Shown piece after piece: positions 8,716 to 26,490 of a stretch of 64,000 nucleotides of DNA. Position 1 is the stretch's first letter. Each line of letters starts with the position of its first letter. The notes under the pieces are model-generated. The model was not told the DNA's origin and made no database searches. It was given only the letters and a program-made list of their open reading frames with translations. A program made the translations under genes and the position numbers. This DNA comes from Alphaproteobacteria bacterium (GTDB lineage: Bacteria; Pseudomonadota; Alphaproteobacteria; UBA828). The DNA lies in contig OZ243972.1 in NCBI GenBank assembly GCA_965214705.1, forward strand, positions 1,344,001 to 1,408,000, read 5' to 3'.

Positions 8716-9855
8716 TCAACCCCTTAGTAGCCGTGCGAGGCTCACTCCGATGCGTTCTGCCGCGGCCTCAGTCTCACGGTCGCCGACATGGGCGTAGCGC
8801 AGTGTCATGCCCGGATTCTTGTGACCAAGCAAGCGGGAGACCACTGGCAGGGGAATGCCTTGGAGCACGGCGTGGCTGGCGTACGTGTGCCGAAGGTCAT
8901 GAATTCGCACATCCTCGATCCCGGCTTCCCTGCGCGCGGAGTACCAGAGCGGCAGATCGGAGCACTGCGGCCGCTCCGGATCGAGCGGCGATGGAAAGAC
9001 GAAGGCGCTGCCCGACCGCGGCTGGCGCTCCAGGATGGCGCGGGCCGGCGCATTCAGGAACACCTGTCTCGGGCCGGTCTTGGCATCGGCGAGGTTGACG
9101 GTATCCCCGTCCACGTCCCGCCAGCGCATGGTCACAATCTCGCTCTTGCGGCAGCCTGTCAGCAGCAGGAGGCGGATGATGTCGGCCTGTTGCGCGCGCG
9201 ACGGCCGCGCGCCGGCGTAGCGGTCCAGCACGCGGTGAAGGCGATGGACTTCATCGCGCGAGAGGAAGCGGGTGAGCCTGGGTCGGGGGTTGCGCTTGAT
9301 GCCGTGCGTGGGGTTGGTGTCGAGGTGGCCGCAGTCGATTGCATGGTTCAGGATCTGGCGGAGCACGTTCAACGCACGATTGGCACCGCCGGGCGCGGTC
9401 CGGCTGTATTCGTCGAACCAGCGGGTCACGGCGATTCGGCCGATCCGGTCCACCGGAATCGGGCCGAAGGCCGGAAGCAGGAGCCCGTTGAGGACCAGGC
9501 GCACGCCCTTTTGCGTCGACGGCTTGCATGTGTCGAGCCGCGCCTGCGCCGGACCGGCGACGAAGTCCGCGAAGGTCGGGACCGCTCCCCGTTCCGGCCT
9601 GCCACCGTGCGGCGCGGTTTCGATTTTGAGGCACCGCGCACGCGCTTCCTCGACGCCCATGAGCGCAGCAGGTCCGAGGGTGATCCTGCGCGCGCCGCCC
9701 TCGCCCTTGCGGCAATACACGAAGCTGCGGTGTCCCGACGGGCGGACGCGGACGCCGAGACCCGCAAGGCGCGTGTCCCAGACCGTATACTCGCGCGCCG
9801 CTGGCGCAAGCTTCGCCACGTTGGCGTCGGTCAGACGCCGCCTCTTCGCGGCCAT
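8716..9855 (-). CDS. Tyrosine recombinase/integrase with arm-binding domain
   Basis: TGCRKSE, DAKTG, HDLRH, LLGH, RYAH catalytic set; N-terminal WDTRLAGLGVRV. Confidence 0.93.
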   Translation of the reverse strand: MAAKRRRLTDANVAKLAPAAREYTVWDTRLAGLGVRVRPSGHRSFVYCRKGEGGARRITLGPAALMGVEEARARCLKIETAPHGGRPERGAVPTFADFVAGPAQARLDTCKPSTQKGVRLVLNGLLLPAFGPIPVDRIGRIAVTRWFDEYSRTAPGGANRALNVLRQILNHAIDCGHLDTNPTHGIKRNPRPRLTRFLSRDEVHRLHRVLDRYAGARPSRAQQADIIRLLLLTGCRKSEIVTMRWRDVDGDTVNLADAKTGPRQVFLNAPARAILERQPRSGSAFVFPSPLDPERPQCSDLPLWYSARREAGIEDVRIHDLRHTYASHAVLQGIPLPVVSRLLGHKNPGMTLRYAHVGDRETEAAAERIGVSLARLLRG

Positions 9856-9858
9856 GCC

Positions 9859-10992
9859 TCAACCCTCCACCAGTGCGGCGCCGACGATGTCGGCCGCCTC
9901 GCGCACCATGGCGTCGGACAGATGGGTGTATTTCAGCGTCGTCGCCGGATTGCGGTGCCCGAGGAGGCGGCCGATGGTCAGCACCGTCTCGCCCTGCGCG
10001 AGCGCCATGCTGGCGTACGTGTGCCGGCAATCGTGAAGGCGGACATCGGACAGACCGGCTTCCGCTCCGACGTGGTGCCAGAATTTGCCGAGCGTCACCG
10101 TGTGCACGAAGCCGTCCGTCCGCGGCGAGGGGAAGATCCAGGTTGCCGTGCGAGGCAGTTCGTCGAGGACCGCGCGCGCGGCGGACGAGAGCCAGACCGT
10201 GCGCGGCCCCGACTTGGAATCGCGCAGGAACAGCTTGCCCTCGCGGTAGTCGCGCCATTTGAGCGAGACGATTTCGCCCTTGCGGCATCCGGTGAGCAGC
10301 AGCAGCCGTACGATCGCCACGGCTTGCGGATTATCGGCTTCATGGCGTGCCAGCACTTCGCCCAGCCGGCGCATGTCGGCGGCAGACAGGAAGCGCTCCC
10401 GGCCCTGGCGGCGGTAGCGCTTGATGCCGACGCACGGGTTGGTGCCCTCGGGCCGGTAGCCGTAGACCTCGGCCTGGCTCATGATGACCGAGAGCACCGG
10501 AGCCGAGCGGTCGGCGGCCACCGGGGTCTCGTGGAGCGAGGCGAACCAGCGCTTGACGTCGCTGGCGGCGATGTCCGCGATGGAACGCCCTTCGAACCAG
10601 GGCAGGATCTGGTTCTTGTAGTAGCCCCGGTTGACGTTGAGCGTGGACGGCTTCCAGTTCCGGGCGTAGCGGCGGAAGACTTCTTCTGCGACCGTCTCGA
10701 AGGCGACGTCCGCGGGTGCTGCGGTCTCGTCGCCGCTTCCGTTGCGGATCGCGGCCAGCAGGGTCCTGGCCCGGCTGCGGGCTTCGTCCAGGTCGATGTC
10801 CCCTGCCTGGCCGACGATCTTCCAGATTCGCCGCCCGTTGTGCTGGCTGTGGATGAAGTAGCGTCTGGCGCCCGAGGTCAGGACCCTTACGCCGAAACCC
10901 TTGAGTTCCCGGTCGCGCACGTCGTAGGCGGACTTGCGGGGCTTGAGCGCATCGACGCGGCGTTGGTCGAGGCGAAGCGTCGCCATCGGCAT
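9859..10992 (-). CDS. Tyrosine recombinase/integrase (tandem paralog)
   Basis: TGCRKGE, HDCRH, LLGH, KYTH; RBS spacing favours ATG 10986. Confidence 0.93.
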   Translation of the reverse strand: MPMATLRLDQRRVDALKPRKSAYDVRDRELKGFGVRVLTSGARRYFIHSQHNGRRIWKIVGQAGDIDLDEARSRARTLLAAIRNGSGDETAAPADVAFETVAEEVFRRYARNWKPSTLNVNRGYYKNQILPWFEGRSIADIAASDVKRWFASLHETPVAADRSAPVLSVIMSQAEVYGYRPEGTNPCVGIKRYRRQGRERFLSAADMRRLGEVLARHEADNPQAVAIVRLLLLTGCRKGEIVSLKWRDYREGKLFLRDSKSGPRTVWLSSAARAVLDELPRTATWIFPSPRTDGFVHTVTLGKFWHHVGAEAGLSDVRLHDCRHTYASMALAQGETVLTIGRLLGHRNPATTLKYTHLSDAMVREAADIVGAALVEG

Positions 10993-11100
10993 TCCTCCTG
11001 CGTTCCGTTGCAGCCGGGGCGAAATCGGGGATCGATTCCGTGTCGTCCGGCTAGATCAGGAGGAAAAAAGCAACGCTGTGTCAGTATATTAGCACCGTAG

Positions 11101-11544
11101 GTGCGCCTGATGGTGTTCGATCCTCAGTCGCGCGAGGCGGCGTTCGCATGTCCCCGCACCTGGGAGTTTGTCTCGAACGTCGTGAACCAGCGCGGCAGCC
11201 TCGACCCCGCCGCGGAGCGGGCGCTGTTCCGGGGCGCTGTCGGCGAGTCGGCGGCGGTCGAGTTCTCCGCCTTCCTCAAGGTCTGGCGCGAGCTGCCCCA
11301 TCCCCGGGCCGTCATCGACGATCCCGAGAACGCGGACGTACCCGAGAACGCCAGCGCGCTGATCGCGCTCTGCGGCTCGCTCTACCGCATGGCCGACGAC
11401 GTCAACCTCGGTTCGATCGTCAGCTACGCCATGAGGCTGAGGCGCGAGGTGGGCGAGTTCCTCGTCGGCTCGTGCGTGCGCCGCGAACCCGCGCTCCAGC
11501 ATACCGACGCCTTCATCCGCTGGGCCGCCGCCCGGACCCAGTGA
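11101..11544 (+). pseudogene. C-terminal fragment of a MoxR-like AAA ATPase
   Basis: FDPQS..AFACPRTWEFVS (sensor-2-type PR.W) but no Walker A/B; typical first gene of AAA / helical / vWA trios; a TAG at 11098-11100 directly precedes it. Confidence 0.75.
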
Positions 11545-11571
11545 CCCCCTGCCCATCGGGAGACTTCACCC

Positions 11572-12468
11572 ATGAACCTCACCCACGACGCCATGCTGGT
11601 CAGCTTGCGCATCACCGCCTGGTCCGGCCGGCTCTACGACCGCCAGGCCTCCAACCACGTCGCGGCCCAGCACGACGCCTCCGCCAGCGCCGGGCGCTAC
11701 AACAAGCGCCTGCTTCCCAAGGCCGCGTTCGCCGCGCTCACCGCCACCGTGAGCGAGGCGCGCACGCAGCACTATGCCAACTCCCTTCCCTGGGACGATC
11801 AGGGCTCGCGGCTGCTCACCGTCGCCAACTACGAAGCCTACACGGACCTGATGGACGGGCTCAGGGAGCGCATGGTGCGCGAGCGCGCCCGCTTCATCGA
11901 GGACTACGACGACAACATCGACCGCGCCCGGCTCGACCTGGGAAAACTCTTCCGCATCGGTGACTACCCCTCGAAGGAGGCGCTGCAGGGCAAGTTCGGG
12001 ATCCGCTACCGCATCGTGCCGGTGCCGGACGCGGACCACTTCATGGCAAAGCTCGCGTCCGACGACACCGAGCGGGTCAAGCGCGGCATCGAGCGCGAGA
12101 TCGAGGAACGCTTGCACGACGCCGTGGGCGATCTCTACCGGCGCCTCGGCGAGGCGGTCGAGCGGGTCTCGGAGCGCCTCACCGAGGACGGCGAGGGCAA
12201 GCCGCTGGTCTTCCGCGACACGATGATCTCCAACGTCCGGGACCTGGTCGACGTCGTGCCCCGGCTCAACATCTTCGGGGACGACCGGCTTGCCAGCCTC
12301 TGCCAGGAAGTGAAGGACAGGATCGCCCACGCGGATCCGGCGACCCTCAGGCCGTCGCCCAAATTCAACCCGAATGTGCGGCGCCAAGTGAAGCGCGACG
12401 CCGATGCGCTGGCGGAGAAGTTCGCGGGGTATTTCGGCAGCCCCGCCGTTGACCGGGAGGCCGCGTAA
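11572..12468 (+). CDS. Conserved mobile-element helical protein (DUF3150-like)
   Basis: GGAG RBS, GC3-rich frame, SLPWDDQGSRLL, DYPS; position between the AAA and vWA genes. Confidence 0.7.
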   Translation: MNLTHDAMLVSLRITAWSGRLYDRQASNHVAAQHDASASAGRYNKRLLPKAAFAALTATVSEARTQHYANSLPWDDQGSRLLTVANYEAYTDLMDGLRERMVRERARFIEDYDDNIDRARLDLGKLFRIGDYPSKEALQGKFGIRYRIVPVPDADHFMAKLASDDTERVKRGIEREIEERLHDAVGDLYRRLGEAVERVSERLTEDGEGKPLVFRDTMISNVRDLVDVVPRLNIFGDDRLASLCQEVKDRIAHADPATLRPSPKFNPNVRRQVKRDADALAEKFAGYFGSPAVDREAA

Positions 12469-13874
12469 TGGGCGCCCGCGCCCGCAAGGAGTCCGCCCGT
12501 CGCGTCAGCGACTGCGTGACCGCGCTGCTGCGCGACCAGCCCTTCTTCGGAAGCCTCGCGCTGCGCCTGCCCATCCGCCCCGACGCGGCCCGAGAGACGC
12601 TGGCGAGCGACGGGCGGGAGATCCGCTACTCGCCCGGCTGGGTCGCGCAGACCGATGCCGATCTCATAAAGACCGCGATCGGACGCGTGGTGCTGGCCTG
12701 CGCACTCAAGCACCACACGCGGCGGGGCGAGCGCGAGCCCGGGCGCTGGCAGCAAGCCTCCCAGCTCGTCACCCACGGACTGCTGCGCGATGCGGGCTTC
12801 AAGCTCCCGCCCGACGCCGAGGCGTGGGACGGTATCAGCGTGGAACAGGCTTACGACCGCCTGCCCGAACCGCAGGAGGGCGGCGGGGAAGGGAGCGACG
12901 GCCCGCCGTCGCCAGGCAACGGCGGCACTGCGGGCGGCCCGCAACCCGACACGGACGACAACGACGGCGGCGGCGATGACGGTGACGACGGCAACGGACC
13001 CGCCGACGCATCCGACGACGGCAATCCTGAAACCGACGACGACGGCGCCGCCGGTCACGGCGGTTCCGCCGATGACGGAGACCCGCAGCCCCCGGCCGAT
13101 TCATCCGGCGACAGCGACTCCGGCACGCCGCCGAGCTGCGATCCATCCGGCACCGGCGAGGTGATGGACGCACCGGCCGGCAGCGGCGACGAGGCCGGCC
13201 CCGGCCAGGCACCGCCCGACTTCTCCGCCGAGGAGCAGGCCTGGGACGAGGCGATGCACCAGGCGCTCAACCTCGCCAAGGCGCAAGGCAAGGCGCCCGG
13301 CGCGGTGGAGGAGACCGTCCGGGACGCCCACCGCAGCACCCTCGATTGGCGCTCGCTCCTGCGCCGCTACATGACCGACGCAGCCGCCCGCGACTATTCC
13401 TGGAGCGTGCCCAACAGGCGCTTCATCGACTCCGGTCTCTATCTCCCCTCGATCCGCTCGGAGGGGATGGGAACCCTCGCCGTCATCATCGACACCTCGG
13501 GCTCTGTCGACAGCGACGCTCTCGCGTCGTTCTGGTCGGAGGTCCGCGAGGTCGCGGCCGAGATCGAACCCGAGCGCATCGTCGTGCTCCAGGTCGACGC
13601 CGCCGTGCGGGACGAGCAGGAGTACGCGCCGGGCGAGTTGCCCGAGCAAATCGTCGTCAAGGGACGCTGGGGCACCGACTTCCGGCCGGGCTTCGCCTGG
13701 CTCGACGAGCAGGGCATCCGGCCCGCCGTGTGCCTGTATTTCACGGACATGGACTGCGACTGCTACCCCGTGACGGAGCCCGGCTACGACGTAATCTGGG
13801 CTGATTACGGGGAGGGCGTCGGGCTCTGGTGCCAGCCACCGCCCTGGGGCGAGCACGTCAGGATCAGGGACTGA
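12468..13874 (+). CDS. vWA-like (DUF2201-type) protein with degenerate metallopeptidase N-domain
   Basis: PFFGSLAL, acidic linker, MIDAS DTSGS, G.GTDF.P, YFTD. Confidence 0.85.
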   Translation: MGARARKESARRVSDCVTALLRDQPFFGSLALRLPIRPDAARETLASDGREIRYSPGWVAQTDADLIKTAIGRVVLACALKHHTRRGEREPGRWQQASQLVTHGLLRDAGFKLPPDAEAWDGISVEQAYDRLPEPQEGGGEGSDGPPSPGNGGTAGGPQPDTDDNDGGGDDGDDGNGPADASDDGNPETDDDGAAGHGGSADDGDPQPPADSSGDSDSGTPPSCDPSGTGEVMDAPAGSGDEAGPGQAPPDFSAEEQAWDEAMHQALNLAKAQGKAPGAVEETVRDAHRSTLDWRSLLRRYMTDAAARDYSWSVPNRRFIDSGLYLPSIRSEGMGTLAVIIDTSGSVDSDALASFWSEVREVAAEIEPERIVVLQVDAAVRDEQEYAPGELPEQIVVKGRWGTDFRPGFAWLDEQGIRPAVCLYFTDMDCDCYPVTEPGYDVIWADYGEGVGLWCQPPPWGEHVRIRD

Positions 13875-13943
13875 CCTTCGGCAGTGGGGCGGCATGTCCG
13901 CCCTGCCAACGATCGCCAGTCCGAAACCGAAGGAAATCACGCC

Positions 13944-14330
13944 ATGATGCCCACCGCCACCTGCCAGTACTGCGGCTGGAACGGGCCGGCAGACCGGTGC
14001 GGCCCGCTCAAGAACGCCGGGGAGCGAGTCGAGCCCGGAACTCCGTTGCCCGCCGGCGAGTGCCCGAACTGCAACGCCTCCGCGATGCTCGACGAGGCCA
14101 GGCAGGAGCCCAGCGTCACCATCGTCACCACGCTGGAGCCGGAACGCGCCACCAGGTTCGGCGTCCGCTCGACCGCCCAGGCCCTCGCCGACGTCATGTG
14201 GCTTGCCGCCAACAGGTACAGCTACCCCGTGCAGGATCTCGGCTCCTCCGGCTTCCGCGTCGCCGTCTGTCGCGAGACATCGAAGCGCGAGACCGTCCCG
14301 CGCGGCTACCTGCGCATCGAGACGGGTTGA
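13944..14330 (+). CDS. Small Zn-ribbon protein
   Basis: CQYCGW.G...PAGECPNC; AAGGA RBS. Confidence 0.7.
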   Translation: MMPTATCQYCGWNGPADRCGPLKNAGERVEPGTPLPAGECPNCNASAMLDEARQEPSVTIVTTLEPERATRFGVRSTAQALADVMWLAANRYSYPVQDLGSSGFRVAVCRETSKRETVPRGYLRIETG

Positions 14331-14346
14331 GAACACGGACGCCTTC

Positions 14347-14451
14347 GGGGCGTGAGGCTCCGGAGAAAGTGTGAACGCGCGTCTTGCGCGGGAGTACCCG
14401 GAGTCAATTGGAGGGAACGACCTCGCGGGTTCGAATCCCGCCCGCCCCACC
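14347..14451 (+). ncRNA. tRNA-like structured RNA (non-canonical)
   Basis: T-arm GCGGG-TTCGAAT-CCCGC (14425-14441); acceptor GGGGCG/CGCCCC followed by ACC; internal helix 14356-63/14398-405; no canonical D-arm. Confidence 0.6.
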
Positions 14452-14479
14452 TTTCCCCCGCATTGCCAGGAGCGACTCC

Positions 14480-14986
14480 ATGACGAAGGTAGAAACCGCC
14501 ACTTGCCAGGACTGCGGCTGGCGGGGTCCGGTGGAAGAGACGAAGGAGTTCCGCAACGTCTGGGACCGCGTTCTGCCGGGCGACGTCATGCCGGCCGGCG
14601 AGTGTCCCGAAGAAGGCTGCGGCGGCGCGGCGATGCTGGACGCGGATCGCGACCGCGCGGACGATCTCCGCCCCCAGATGGTCGCGCTCATGCTCGGGCT
14701 CAACCGGCTTCGCGAGGACCTCCGCAACGGCGTGCTGCGCTCTCCGGTTGCCTTTCACCTCGAGGAGCTTGCCGGCTACGCGCGCAGGGCGCTCGCGTCC
14801 GGCCCGCCCGTTCGGCCCGTCTGCAACGCCTGCGGCGGCACCGGCGTGCGGGTGGACGCCTGGGCGAGCTGGGACGTCCACGCCCAGCGCTGGGAGTTGC
14901 ACTCCGCCTGCGAGGCGGTCGCCATCTGCGCGGATTGCGACCTCGAGTGCAGCTACACGATGAAACCCGTCACGGAGGCGGCGTGA
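14480..14986 (+). CDS. Zn-ribbon protein, paralog of 13944 with a second CxxC pair
   Basis: CQDCGW.G...PAGECPEEGC, then C-terminal CNAC...CADC; AGGAG RBS. Confidence 0.75.
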   Translation: MTKVETATCQDCGWRGPVEETKEFRNVWDRVLPGDVMPAGECPEEGCGGAAMLDADRDRADDLRPQMVALMLGLNRLREDLRNGVLRSPVAFHLEELAGYARRALASGPPVRPVCNACGGTGVRVDAWASWDVHAQRWELHSACEAVAICADCDLECSYTMKPVTEAA

Positions 14987-15324
14987 TGCAGGAGAGAAGC
15001 GCGTTCGACTTCGGCGGCAACCGGATCGTCCGACAGTCCGAGCCGATGACGATCGGCAAGCACGAATGGCGGCTCACCCTCTACCGCTCCCCGCATCGCG
15101 AGCACCCGCTGATCGGCTACGAATGGCGCCGCGCCGACGGCGCGCCCATCCGCCGCACGTGCCCCGGCGGCGCCTACCGGCTCGACGGCTCCACCTGGAT
15201 GCGCGACCGGGACTGGCCCTCCTACAACCACAACGACGGAGAGTGGGGCGGCATGCCGCGCACGCTGCGCAAGCTCTGGGAACGGTGCCCGTGGGCGCAC
15301 ACCCGCGAGACCCGCCCGGCCTGA
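14986..15324 (+). CDS. Hypothetical protein
   Basis: TGATG coupling to the upstream gene, GGAGG RBS, Trp-rich 112 aa. Confidence 0.6.
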   Translation: MQERSAFDFGGNRIVRQSEPMTIGKHEWRLTLYRSPHREHPLIGYEWRRADGAPIRRTCPGGAYRLDGSTWMRDRDWPSYNHNDGEWGGMPRTLRKLWERCPWAHTRETRPA

Positions 15325-15567
15325 CCCTCCCCGATAGCGCGGCGCACCCTCGCCGGCAGCTCCACGGTCCCCGTCTCTCGCCGGCGCGAGTGGCGAAGCG
15401 CGCGCCCCGGGGCGACGGGCCGGGGCCATGGAGAGAGCCGATCGCTCCGCATCCCCGTTCCCGTCGCCCACACATCCGTCCCCGCGCCCACTGGCCTACC
15501 CACGGAGGCCTCGGCTCCACCCCTGCGGTGCGCGCCGATCCCGATCCGGCATCAACGAGGAATCGCA

Positions 15568-16305
15568 ATGGACCCACGAACCGACATCGTCGCAGTCGCG
15601 GCGCTGCTGGTCGCCGCGCGCACCGTCGTGGCCGATCCCGCGCGCTGGTGCGCGTACCCGCACGCGCTCGATGCGAACGGCCACAGTTGCGAGGGGCGGG
15701 CGGGCAACGCCGTCTGCTGGGGCGCTGCCGGCGCCCTCGACCGCGCGGCCGCCGACGCGGGGGCCGCCGAGCACGACATCGCCGAGGCGCGCCGGCAACT
15801 GAACCAGGCCGCTCTCCGCGTCGCGAGCGGCTGGACGGGCACGGCTTGGCTTCTGGATCGCAAGGCCGCCCACGCCATGACCGTCGCCGGTTTCGACGAC
15901 GCGATCCGCGCCATGCCCAGGCCGGAGACCACCGGTGCGGTCGATATCCTCAGCCTCGCCCGCACCCTCATCGCGCACCCCGGCCGCTGGGCGCAGGGCG
16001 CCATCGCGCTTGATCGGAACGGGCGGGCGCTGACCACCTTCGACGGCGGCTGCCGCTTCTGCGCCGCGGGCGCAGTGGGCCTCGCCGTCCATGTGCTGGG
16101 ACAGGACGAAGCGGCCCGCCGCAGCATCGGCCCCACCTTCGATTACGTGGGCCGTCTGCTCGACTGCGCCGCCTGCAAGCTCGGTGAGTTCGAGAGCTAC
16201 ATCGGCCTCAACGAGCACGACAGCCACGCCAACGTCGTCGCCATGTTCGACCATGCCCTCGGCATGGCGCGCGCGGACTCCGCTCCCGACCCGGAGGCAT
16301 CGTGA
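15568..16305 (+). CDS. DUF6197-like protein with two tandem domains
   Basis: Repeated W....A.D.NG......C..GA motif; GAGG RBS. Confidence 0.65.
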   Translation: MDPRTDIVAVAALLVAARTVVADPARWCAYPHALDANGHSCEGRAGNAVCWGAAGALDRAAADAGAAEHDIAEARRQLNQAALRVASGWTGTAWLLDRKAAHAMTVAGFDDAIRAMPRPETTGAVDILSLARTLIAHPGRWAQGAIALDRNGRALTTFDGGCRFCAAGAVGLAVHVLGQDEAARRSIGPTFDYVGRLLDCAACKLGEFESYIGLNEHDSHANVVAMFDHALGMARADSAPDPEAS

Positions 16306-16730
16306 CCATGACCGCCATCGCTCCCACGCCCCGCGACCTCCTCGTGGAGGCGCGCACGCTCATCGCCAGGCCCGAGGCCTGGACCCAGGGCGCCGGCGCG
16401 CGCGACGCCAATGGCGAGCCCGTCGGCGTCGAGCATGAGGACGCCGTCTCGTGGTGCGCCACCGGCGCGATCAACTGCGCCATGTACCGCCATGTGGATT
16501 CCCTAGAGGTCCCGCCGCCGCTGCAGCGCGCCCGCGAGCGCGCCAGCGCCATGCTCACCGACACGGTGCGCGCCCTGACCCTTGGCCACTACACGGAGGC
16601 CACCACTTACAACGACCGGACCAATCACGGCTGCATCGTCCATGCCTTCGACATCGCGATCGCCGACGCCGACAGGCGTTGCCGCAAGCACTCGACCGGC
16701 CGTGCCAGGGTTACGGAGCGCGCACGATGA
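16302..16730 (+). CDS. DUF6197-like protein
   Basis: AWTQGAGARDANG...WCATGAI...YND...FDIAI. Confidence 0.7.
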   Translation: MTMTAIAPTPRDLLVEARTLIARPEAWTQGAGARDANGEPVGVEHEDAVSWCATGAINCAMYRHVDSLEVPPPLQRARERASAMLTDTVRALTLGHYTEATTYNDRTNHGCIVHAFDIAIADADRRCRKHSTGRARVTERAR

Positions 16731-24330: not shown

Positions 24331-26490
24331 CCCAAGTTGGCACTTTTCCGCTGCCTGTGTTCCCTATTGGTTTGATTCAACGCGATATTTTTCTCGGTCG
24401 ATTCCAACATGGCCCCACATTTTGTGAGATTCTGTCAGCTCATCAGACGGGTCCTCGTGCGGTGGATGGCGGGGTCCACGCCCGCCGCCGAGGAGATTGC
24501 GGCAACCTCGGCGGCCGGGCGCGTGTCCTGGCGGTTGACGATCAAGGTGCCGTCGGTCTGGCGCAGGCGCGTGGTGATCCGCACCCAGGTCCGCATGCTC
24601 TCGCGGATCGACGCCCAGCACTTGTGGATGCCGCGCGCGGCCAGCCGGGTACGGATCAGATGCACGGCGTGGTAGGCCAGCACGGCGATCAGCAGGTGGG
24701 CCGCGATGCGCCGGTCGAGCTGGTGCCAGATCGGGCGAAGGCCGAGCTCGGATTTCAGGCTCCGGAATGTCGCCTCGATATCCGTGATCCGCCAGTACGT
24801 CCGCAGGACCGTCTCGATGTCCCAGTCGACGTGGCTGGTGCGCAGCACATAGGCACCGGCGCCCTCATCGGCCTCGTCGTATCGCGGCCTGCGCTTGAAG
24901 CGCACGGCGGTGGCATTGGGGCCGGTTTTCGCCCTCTCGACCGTGATCTCGTAGTGCCTGGCGACGGCGGAGAAGCGCTGCTTGAGGCGGCCTATGCTCT
25001 CCAGCACCTTGTCGTAGCGCTTGAGGCGGCCCTTGACCGCAAGGCCGCCGTGGAGCCTTTCCAGCGCCGCCTCGAAGCGGTTCCGCCTCAGGCCGATGAT
25101 CGCGTTCTCGGCCTTCTTCTTGCCCTCGCTGACGACGTAGAGCCGCGCCTCGCCGTCCTCGCTGGCAAGCCGCCAGGCCCGCACCTCGTGGCGCGCGCTG
25201 GTGATCAGCAGGGCCTCGGGTCCGCCCTCGGGCGGCGCAGGCCTGGCACCGCGGCTGACCGCGATCCAGTCGTAGCCCTGCTCGCCCAGCCAGACGATGT
25301 TCTCCTCGGTGGCGATGCCCGCGTCCATGACCACCGTGGGCTTCGGCGCCGTGCCGCCGCACACCGCCTCGAGCCGCGCCAGCGCCTCGTGCAGCGTGCC
25401 CGGCTCGCTCACGTTGCCCGGCAGGATCTCGCAACTGCGCGGGAAGCCCGCGCCGTCGAGCGCCAGCGCCAGCGTGATGAGGGGACAGTCGTCGCGCTTC
25501 TGCTTGGAGCGCCCGAACCTGGGAAGCTCGCCGCCCGTGTGGCCGTGGTAGTGGACGTTGGTGAGATCGTAGAAGGCGATCGTCTCGGGCAGGTCGAGCA
25601 GTGCGCGCTCACGGTTGAACAGCTCCCGCTGGATGGCGGCGCGGTGGCGCCAGAGCAGGTCGCCGATGCGGTAGAGCGTCTTGCGCCGCAGCGCCTTGCG
25701 GTCGCCCTCCAGGCCCAGGAGCTCGGCGGCCGCGCTGTCGTGGCGGAGCCAGCGGCTGGTATCACGCTCGCTGGCGGGATGGACCATCCTGGCGACGATC
25801 AGCGCGCTGGCGATGCGCCCGTCGCGGCCCTTGATGTCGAGGCCGTGGAGGATTTCGGCGAAGCCGAGGGCGTCGAGGGCCTTGAGGCACAGGCGCTCGC
25901 AGCCGACCGTGCGCGGGTTCTCGTGCTCCAGGGTATCGAGGTCGACGGTGGCGATGTCGGGCTTGCGCGCCTCTTCCTGCATCGCCTCGACGCGGAACCC
26001 CCTGGCCCTGAGCTTGGCGACGATGTCCTCGGCTGCGGCCCGCACATCCGCCTCGCCCTCGAACAGCGGCGGCTTGCCGTGAAGCAGCGCCTCGGCGAGT
26101 TCGGTGACGGCCTTCCACTTCTCGCGCGGCACCGGATAGTCGGTGCCGAGATTGAGCAGCGTCCTGTGGCGCACCTTGTCGCCGACGCGCTGGGCGAGCA
26201 CGAGGCGATGGCTTCGGACCGGCTGGCCGGCCTTGTCGGTGTGTGTCCTGGTTGCCTTGATGTACATGGCGGCGCCGTTTCTGCGATGCCTGTTTCGCAT
26301 ACACGGCGTTCGCGGCATCTGGCAAGAGGGATATCGACTCAACTCCAAAGTCCTGGCCCCACAATTGGCTTCCAGGACCACGAATGGCAAATGTGGGTCT
26401 CAGGTGTCCTCCAACCCCAACATCTAGTGGTTCAGCGCCGCAAAACTAGCTCGAACAGGCTCGGCTGGTCGGAAAAAGTGCCAACTTGGG
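24331..26490 (-). mobile_element. IS1634-family insertion sequence
   Basis: 17-bp perfect terminal IR CCCAAGTTGGCACTTTT; 4-bp target duplication TCAA (24327-30, 26491-94). Confidence 0.92.
24435..26267 (-). CDS. IS1634-family DDE transposase
   Basis: FYDLTNVHYHG, FGRSKQKRDD, VVMDAG, IEATFRSLKSELGLRPIWH. Confidence 0.9.
   Translation of the reverse strand: MYIKATRTHTDKAGQPVRSHRLVLAQRVGDKVRHRTLLNLGTDYPVPREKWKAVTELAEALLHGKPPLFEGEADVRAAAEDIVAKLRARGFRVEAMQEEARKPDIATVDLDTLEHENPRTVGCERLCLKALDALGFAEILHGLDIKGRDGRIASALIVARMVHPASERDTSRWLRHDSAAAELLGLEGDRKALRRKTLYRIGDLLWRHRAAIQRELFNRERALLDLPETIAFYDLTNVHYHGHTGGELPRFGRSKQKRDDCPLITLALALDGAGFPRSCEILPGNVSEPGTLHEALARLEAVCGGTAPKPTVVMDAGIATEENIVWLGEQGYDWIAVSRGARPAPPEGGPEALLITSARHEVRAWRLASEDGEARLYVVSEGKKKAENAIIGLRRNRFEAALERLHGGLAVKGRLKRYDKVLESIGRLKQRFSAVARHYEITVERAKTGPNATAVRFKRRPRYDEADEGAGAYVLRTSHVDWDIETVLRTYWRITDIEATFRSLKSELGLRPIWHQLDRRIAAHLLIAVLAYHAVHLIRTRLAARGIHKCWASIRESMRTWVRITTRLRQTDGTLIVNRQDTRPAAEVAAISSAAGVDPAIHRTRTRLMS

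Follow-up and report, generated by a model that had tools for sequence, protein, structure and literature searches.

A conserved tRNA-like structured RNA in the operon of an integrative conjugative element, with a putative role in RNA processing

A 149-nt gap between two plus-strand genes, in the long plus-strand operon of an integrative conjugative element, holds a 105-nt sequence (positions 14347..14451, plus strand) that is a real, conserved, non-coding structured RNA, and neither a tRNA nor a tmRNA nor an att scar. All positions refer to the whole 64,000-nt stretch of alphaproteobacterial DNA analysed, called the window hereafter. The element retains the "top half" of a class II tRNA, i.e., a 6–7-bp acceptor stem on a 5-bp T-stem, a T-loop, a variable-arm-like hairpin and a terminal purine-C-C. 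From its sequence, it looks to have descended from a class II tRNA in which one long arm has replaced the D and anticodon arms. Tentatively, and short of even confidence, we read it as a cis-acting tRNA mimic, a processing or stability signal for RNase P and other tRNA-end enzymes.

Architecture of the element

The acceptor-like 5′ strand, GGGGCG (14347..14352), pairs with CGCCCC (14443-14448), and these pairs are G-C in 19 to 22 of the 22 copies that we have identified. The third pair is G-C in all 22, leaving no G3-U70. A T-G-A junction (14353..14355; invariant in the 22 copies) takes the place of tRNA positions 7–9. At the seventh acceptor position, T14353 is opposite C14442 (a mismatch), for which RNAalifold gives the alternative of a G14354-C14442 pair with T14353 bulged. 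The D and anticodon arms are replaced by a long arm, P2 (14356..14405), made up of an 8-bp helix (14356-14363/14398-14405) that includes one G-T pair, an internal loop (14364-14375 and 14391-14397) and a 15-nt distal hairpin, CGCGC-GTCTT-GCGCG (14376-14390). A linker and a small hairpin, P3 (14406..14424), follow and match the way the variable arm opens in a class II tRNA (TGGAG...); GAGG (14411-14414) pairs with CCTC (14421-14424), with three alternative registers possible.

The T-arm, GCGGG/TTCGAAT/CCCGC (14425..14441), has a stem of 5 bp and a loop of 7 nt, and is followed by the 3′ acceptor strand CCGCCCC, a purine discriminator and CC (14442..14451; in the window copy, A14449, C14450 and C14451). 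Beyond lies the 28-nt leader (14452..14479) of the downstream gene P0001, with the Shine-Dalgarno sequence AGGAG at 14468-14472. The element together with the Shine-Dalgarno sequence holds four GGAG motifs. A first-pass annotation, made from the letters of the window alone, had described the perfect T-arm, the 6-bp acceptor stem with its T-C seventh pair, the discriminator A and CC, the GAGG/CCTC hairpin before the T-arm, the 8-bp helix enclosing the CGCGC-GTCTT-GCGCG hairpin and the lack of a G3-U70 pair; this anatomy stands in every part.

The minimum free energy (MFE) fold of the isolated 105-nt RNA is a four-way junction with exactly these pairs (-51.9 kcal/mol, z = -2.92), and one in 200 shuffled sequences folded as well. 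When 27 and 34 nt of flanking sequence are added, the 5′ acceptor strand pairs with an upstream complement (~14339-14343) instead, and the energy of this longer transcript is ordinary (z = +0.56; 137 of 200 shuffles as good). Two further pairings were considered and rejected: that of the P2 5′ strand with the first GGAG copy (14391-14394), where the partner column has G, A or C opposite an invariant C, and a GUGU/GUAC helix in the P2 loop, which was predicted from the single sequence and is not kept in the other copies.

The T-loop motif by itself occurs at chance level in the window, with 19 matches at no more than one mismatch against 18.8 expected. The case that the element is more than chance is made, therefore, by its conservation in 22 copies and not by the motif alone.

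Screening against known RNA classes

ARAGORN finds 0 tRNA and 0 tmRNA genes in the whole window, and none with the options -ps, -ps90 or -i either; with -i -ps and with -ps80 it returns only implausible calls with an "intron" of 25–39 nt. No Rfam family matches the element at the gathering thresholds. In a permissive Rfam scan of 14200-14600, the sole hit at E < 0.01 is an 18-nt T-arm match to tmRNA, scoring 14.1 bits where the gathering threshold is 47. Both programs thus agree with the earlier opinion that this is neither a normal tRNA nor a tmRNA.

The acceptor stem and T-stem and the UUCRANY T-loop are those of a canonical tRNA, save for the seventh pair (a U/C mismatch, or the bulged-U alternative). 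A canonical anticodon arm is missing: the candidate loop, 14381-14385, varies in length (3–11 nt across copies) and in sequence (mean identity 0.47), so freely that it cannot hold an anticodon. The first-pass annotation had offered a decoy against anticodon nucleases as one of three functions, and with no anticodon loop other than this candidate, such a decoy is unlikely. As to tmRNA, there is no tag reading frame and there are no pseudoknots, and the long arm is closed by a hairpin. Of the "tmRNA-style architecture" proposed earlier, the tRNA-like part is sound, whereas the likeness to tmRNA is superficial, given the hairpin-closed helix, the missing mRNA-like domain and the missing G3-U70. 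An att duplicate does not fit, as the 5′ acceptor strand is present and conserved and the element does not lie at an element border beside an integrase. The structure does have what a t-element-like minihelix has, an acceptor/T-arm with an intact T-loop and a terminal R-C-C (21 of the 22 copies).

Genomic setting

The host genome (7.9 Mb, 67% G+C, three contigs) is alphaproteobacterial, has its own permuted tmRNA elsewhere, and encodes a type A RNase P RNA (263 bits). At the head of the conjugative element, two tandem tyrosine integrase genes (8716-9855 and 9859-10992, minus strand) are 3 nt apart; the RNA lies 3.4 kb from them, within the operon. The gene order runs from the integrases through an ATPase fragment, DUF3150, a DUF2201 VWA/metallopeptidase and P0002 to the tRNA-like RNA and P0001, and continues with a PAPS-reductase/SspD-like gene, a ParB-like gene, a HATPase, DUF6573 and a strawberry-notch helicase-methylase (Sbno), with a MobF relaxase further on. 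Neither a promoter nor a terminator came up when 10900-16500 was scanned for consensus sequences. Further down, a DDE transposase gene on the opposite strand (24435-26399, minus) sits in the middle of the plus-strand operon and is probably an insertion sequence.

The upstream gene, P0002 (13884..14330, plus strand; likely start ATG at ~13944), has an N-terminal zinc-ribbon motif. P0001 (14480..14986, plus strand) encodes a protein of 168 aa with two Cys-rich zinc-ribbon-like domains and no named family: no Pfam, PHROG, NCBIfam or PADLOC family matched it. Its AlphaFold model has a pLDDT of 75 and found no match in the PDB at E ≤ 0.001. The Atlas gave weak leads only, namely unnamed clusters and a Lar-type zinc-ribbon family at 0.78, and about 100 clusters of the protein are ENA-only. 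The N-termini of P0002 and P0001 have in common the Cys-rich zinc-ribbon motif TATCQxCGW...PAGECP, which is paralogous between the two. Relatives also have short forms of P0001 (~121 aa) that are devoid of the helical middle and appear as a 440-nt skip in contigs.

Copies, distribution and modularity

By BLAST and a covariance model (R1, built from alignment A3), we identified 22 copies in total, all in the same conjugative-element operon and scoring 99–147 bits. Eighteen full-length copies occur in 11 of 21 genomes of the host genus, and the host genome itself has a second copy 180 kb away from that in the window. The others comprise two in one metagenome-assembled genome (MAG) labelled Gammaproteobacteria (L038 and L057), one in a further MAG contig and one in a metagenome. 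A pattern scan of metagenomes returned 78 stretches, of which only two, identical to each other, are the element; the other matches, all discarded, are real tRNAs, att halves or unrelated sequences. Across nine other genera of the family (23 genomes), the covariance model gave no strong match (one hit, in G033, reached 35 bits), and blastn found none in the plasmid collection; the single pattern match in viral contigs is not the element. Run labels link the host genus to sponge and coral samples. The family is narrow, i.e., one genus and a few metagenomic relatives, and its immediate reach is modest.

The upstream neighbour differs by copy: it can be P0002, a gene plus a G+C-rich hairpin, or a gene ending in ...LADLLH. 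Downstream, 20 loci have a full-length P0001 homologue, and the RNA precedes it in 13, is represented by a decayed 3′ half in one (L049, 15.9 bits) and is missing from six. At L039, where the upstream gene is as in L038, the same place is taken by a short hairpin with both acceptor strands and an A-C-C tail. At L057, the RNA, the leader and the Shine-Dalgarno sequence precede a different gene of 166 aa. G005 shares the backbone but has 120 nt in place of the stretch that corresponds to 14458-15516 of the window, with P0001 and a small downstream ORF. The two sequences part 6 nt past the RNA; in this copy, the 3′ half, otherwise invariant, carries four changes, and no integrase adjoins it. In 21 copies, the start codon follows the acceptor end at a distance of 31–35 nt. 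RNA and leader move as a module.

Each window contains one such element only, and we are therefore not dealing with a general punctuation system. In genome G003, three RNA copies, each with a P0001 homologue, are found within 200 kb (contig C2, ~1186555, 1273601 and 1377970), which suggests several related conjugative elements side by side.

Conservation and covariation

Identity to the window copy is 0.78–0.95 over the element, 0.46–0.93 over the 28-nt leader and 0.42–0.91 over the first 480 nt of the downstream gene, the proteins of which are 59–89% identical across copies; upstream, it drops to about 0.3–0.4 where the upstream gene differs. By this measure, the element is better conserved than the genes that flank it, and we take it to be under selection. 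Within the element, mean pairwise identity among the 22 copies is highest in the U-G-A junction (1.00), the T-stem and T-loop (0.96–1.00) and the 3′ acceptor strand (0.97), remains high in the stems of the distal hairpin (0.90–0.95), is 0.65–0.71 in the flanks, and falls to its 0.47 in the distal loop. In a 19-copy alignment, T-G-G-A at 14409-14412 is invariant, and A-G at 14393-14394 and A14366 of the internal loop are kept in all. The tail reads ACC in 14 copies, GCC in seven and GTC in one; the base after it is A in six of the 22, and CCA is encoded in five, while position -1 is C in 20.

The element is non-coding, since indels of 1 and 2 nt occur inside it while the downstream gene stays intact. 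Because the T-loop consensus, the one-sided G-U/A-U changes and the orientation of the flanking genes all point to the plus strand, we take it to act from that strand.

Over the 22 copies, 94.0% of the cells are paired, against about 50% in slid controls. Both sides have changed at two of the 29 pairs; pair 14362-14399 is G-C in 19 copies and C-G in two, and pair 14416-14420 is mostly A/A, with U-A in two copies and C-G in four. RNAalifold recovers the same junction with one compensatory pair. Among 500 shuffles, one reached the observed percentage paired and two the covariation score, excesses that relatedness alone can produce; 239 reached the observed number of pairs changed on both sides, and 270 that of further standard pair types. 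The covariation is weak. The first-pass annotation had proposed a search for homologues with covariation as a check; the homologues exist, and the covariation is as thin as these counts.

For the acceptor stem, there are no compensatory and three wobble-compatible changes, and in about five of the 22 copies a mismatch or a 1-nt deletion (three to five disruptions) goes uncompensated. Four pairs of P2 vary on one side only and remain paired, and 14357-14404 is not kept (unpaired in 12 of 22). None of the five T-stem pairs varies, and they are thus uninformative on covariation. In P3, all three changes between L057 and L038 favour the GCCGG/CCGGC register.

Relation to class II tRNA

When the host genome is ranked with the covariance model, the best scores after the two copies belong to real tRNAs, led by tRNA-Ser(gct) at 29.8 bits. 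The exact 25-nt 3′ core (T-arm, 3′ acceptor strand and discriminator) occurs in 13 of 79 pattern-matched metagenome loci, and these 13 are tRNA-Leu(UAA) genes or att-type 3′ halves. In this tRNA-Leu(UAA) lineage (L093, L113, L119 and others), the core is identical to that of the element, the 5′ strand reads GGGGCGG as compared to GGGGCGT in the element (6 of 7 positions match), and the variable arm starts with the same TGGAG. Counted by hand over the 41 positions that run from TGGA to the discriminator, 34 agree, among them 14 of the 21 that the search pattern does not fix. Unlike the tRNA-Leu(UAA) genes, the element has no D-arm, no anticodon arm and no anticodon, and is not called a tRNA by ARAGORN. 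The host's own tRNA-Leu genes differ from the element; no tRNA of the host has its 3′ end and, the copies aside, no match in the host genome exceeds 20 nt.

Five metagenome loci (L094, L100, L132, L137 and L140) carry the 3′ half of a tRNA-Leu(UAA), from the anticodon loop to the discriminator, after unrelated DNA. Such halves are typical att duplicates of elements that integrate there. They have no 5′ strand, which the element keeps.

Other tRNA-like sequences came up in the same searches. A 119-nt sequence with a T-arm and an ACCA end (L095:883-1001, minus strand; L122:52-170, plus strand) scores 30 bits with the covariance model, has no ARAGORN call and may be an unusual long tRNA or another mimic. 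The host genome, G000, has outside the window at least six copies of a repeat of more than 100 nt (C1:620588, C1:1331263(-), C3:383317(-), C3:1417972, C3:2066461 and C2:673826(-)), which includes a T-arm-like hairpin, GCGGGTGCGAATCCCGC, and looks like an insertion-sequence end or another mobile repeat. Two near-identical stretches of the same genome (C1:511171 and C1:4166519) end in a T-arm-like GCGGGTTCGACTCCCGC followed by CCG, and ARAGORN calls no tRNA there. ARAGORN does call "tRNAs" of 91–94 nt at five other places in G000 (C1:256637, 511597 and 649902; C2:11055; C3:2795779), which have mismatched stems and unstructured long extra arms and are probably false positives in G+C-rich DNA.

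Possible functions

Of the three functions put forward in the first-pass annotation, that of an RNase P processing signal for the operon appears to match the anatomy best. In the mechanism we envisage, the element would be co-transcribed with the operon and recognised by the host enzymes that read an acceptor/T-arm minihelix. RNase P, the main candidate, would cut between C14346 and G14347; further candidates are a 3′ endonuclease, exonucleases and perhaps the CCA-adding enzyme. The polycistronic message would be divided by this cleavage, and the downstream mRNA, carrying the leader and the zinc-ribbon gene or another following gene, would keep a structured, recessed 5′ end, by which its stability or translation could be set independently of the upstream genes.

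The predicted determinants for RNase P are in place: 7 + 5 stacked pairs form a 12-bp stack next to a canonical T-loop, and R-C-C is kept in all copies but one while A76 is not, in a host with a type A RNase P RNA. The position inside an operon with neither promoter nor terminator near it is in line with this reading. According to the parts of the review drawn upon here, RNase P cleaves tRNA-like and mRNA substrates, including operon mRNAs and the precursor of the phage P1/P7 C4 RNA (PMC11143913), and the cited portion of the work on plant mitochondrial t-elements describes tRNA-like structures at mRNA ends, put forward as cis-acting signals that RNase P and/or RNase Z would recognise (PMC1920247).

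In one RNA library, a coral metatranscriptome, assembled contigs of relatives with 88–90% identity extend from the upstream gene across the RNA into the downstream gene. These contigs are compatible with co-transcription, with the provisos that DNA may have been carried over and that contigs are blind to RNA ends; they read through both borders and show no cutting, and are neither proof of transcription nor informative on processing. Against a processing signal stand the weak covariation and the acceptor stems disrupted in about five copies, as well as the ability of the window-type 5′ strand to pair upstream, as it does in the MFE fold of the longer transcript. At position -1, nearly all copies have C, whereas bacterial RNase P prefers U. 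The element is, moreover, dispensable for the downstream gene, to judge from the six loci out of 20 that do without it and the one with the decayed half, and a single element per window does not make for general punctuation.

Alternatively, the element may act in trans, as an RNA of ~105 nt excised at both ends, perhaps CCA-tailed, and released as a free particle. It could then sequester, as a decoy or sponge, proteins with affinity for the acceptor/T-arm (tRNases directed at the acceptor or T-loop, modification enzymes or defence sensors), or be a partner of the zinc-ribbon proteins encoded on either side. We hold this to be unlikely, albeit the strongest of the alternatives. The parts that a protein could read are nearly invariant, i.e., the T-arm, the 3′ acceptor strand and the U-G-A junction, and the A-G and A14366 of the P2 internal loop are kept; the AGUA and GAA strands of that loop presumably recall a loop-E or bulged-G protein-binding motif. 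The RNA persists where the downstream gene has been replaced (L057) or deleted (G005), and operons of this kind carry counter-defence genes, here the ParB-like gene, the PAPS-reductase/SspD-like gene and the Sbno helicase-methylase.

On the other side, CCA is not encoded in most copies, the A/G flips of the discriminator are at odds with a fixed aminoacylation identity, and the leader and Shine-Dalgarno sequence travel along, suggesting a role in cis. The four changes of the G005 copy, which has no downstream gene, look like relaxed constraint. That the host tRNA-maturation enzymes excise and CCA-tail a free, anticodon-less mimic, which then serves in trans as a decoy for tRNases of defence systems or competitors that attack the acceptor stem or T-loop, or as the RNA partner of both zinc-ribbon proteins, we regard as more doubtful again. 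If true, the free mimic would be an RNA-based counter-defence or sensing device made from a captured tRNA-Leu.

As a third possibility, the RNA might be a regulatory leader that controls translation of the gene 28–33 nt downstream without being cleaved, as a platform for a protein (e.g., in autoregulation by one of the zinc-ribbon proteins) or for the ribosome. The steady distance between acceptor end and start codon, the joint movement of RNA, leader and Shine-Dalgarno sequence and the four GGAG motifs would all suit such a role. We nevertheless judge it improbable: a perfect T-loop and an R-C-C tail go unexplained in a translational operator, the Shine-Dalgarno sequence, which pairs with CUCC in the window, does not do so in other copies, and the fold of P0001 has no match at E ≤ 0.001.

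A role at the DNA level is more improbable still, be it as a cloverleaf in the transferred single strand (in priming or single-strand initiation) or as a site of recombination or integration, the last of which was the remaining proposal of the first-pass annotation. The conjugative element does encode a MobF relaxase, homology between element variants breaks at both borders of the RNA, and G003 has its three related elements within 200 kb. Homologous recombination alone, however, predicts breakpoints beside a conserved stretch, and the T-loop is kept as an RNA consensus on the coding strand. Integration in particular finds no support: no host tRNA offers the same 3′ end, the RNA lies well inside the operon, no integrase adjoins any copy examined, the metagenome att duplicates differ in being without the 5′ strand, and the copy with the altered 3′ half, in G005, sits alongside a plain 1-kb deletion.

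Least probable of all is a functionless, decaying pseudo-tRNA, a reading to which the apparent class II derivation, the absence or decay at seven of the 20 homologous loci and the weak covariation would lend themselves, but which is disfavoured by conservation, as the element has changed less than the coding DNA next to it and far less than the leader, and its stems differ from its loops in the manner of a folded RNA.

Comparison with known systems

Organelles, plant viruses and a few long RNAs of the nucleus provide the textbook cases of tRNA look-alikes that steer RNA processing. The bacterial cases known to us comprise tmRNA, the Y RNAs and a small number of simple hairpins for RNase P. The mascRNA/MEN-beta elements and the bacterial YrlA Y RNAs are tRNA mimics within or beside longer transcripts that are read by tRNA-processing enzymes; the former are eukaryotic and nuclear, and YrlA is linked to the gene for Rsr/Ro60. 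Among the 15 ORFs that we scanned against Pfam, none encodes a TROVE-domain protein.

The tRNA-like domain of tmRNA has, like the element, an acceptor stem and a T-arm, no anticodon arm and a long helix in its place. Unlike tmRNA, the element has no G3-U70, no tag frame and no pseudoknots, and its long helix is capped by a hairpin.

Our full-text search of the literature returned no paper on a tRNA-like RNA within the operon of a conjugative element. A conserved four-way tRNA mimic in such an operon would imply that the tRNA-end machinery of the host may be put to use by mobile elements to adjust the expression of genes inside a long transfer-associated operon or, under the alternative reading, that these elements may make a tRNA decoy.

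The processing signal that we favour has its nearest counterparts in two sets of known or proposed RNase P substrates. Bacterial non-tRNA substrates (intercistronic sites in operons, the P1/P7 C4 precursor and pre-tmRNA), as treated in the sections of the review cited (PMC11143913), present an acceptor/T-stem-like stack and a 3′ RCC(A), as does the element; most of those described there are simple hairpins or transient folds, whereas the element forms a complete four-way junction that includes a canonical T-loop and a hairpin resembling a variable arm. The t-elements of plant mitochondria, in the part of the account considered here (Forner et al. 2007, PMC1920247), are likewise tRNA-like, non-decoding signals at mRNA borders; they are organellar, have ends mapped by experiment and bear no sequence relation to the element. 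Narrow in distribution and putative in function, the element belongs to the known kind of tRNA-like elements.
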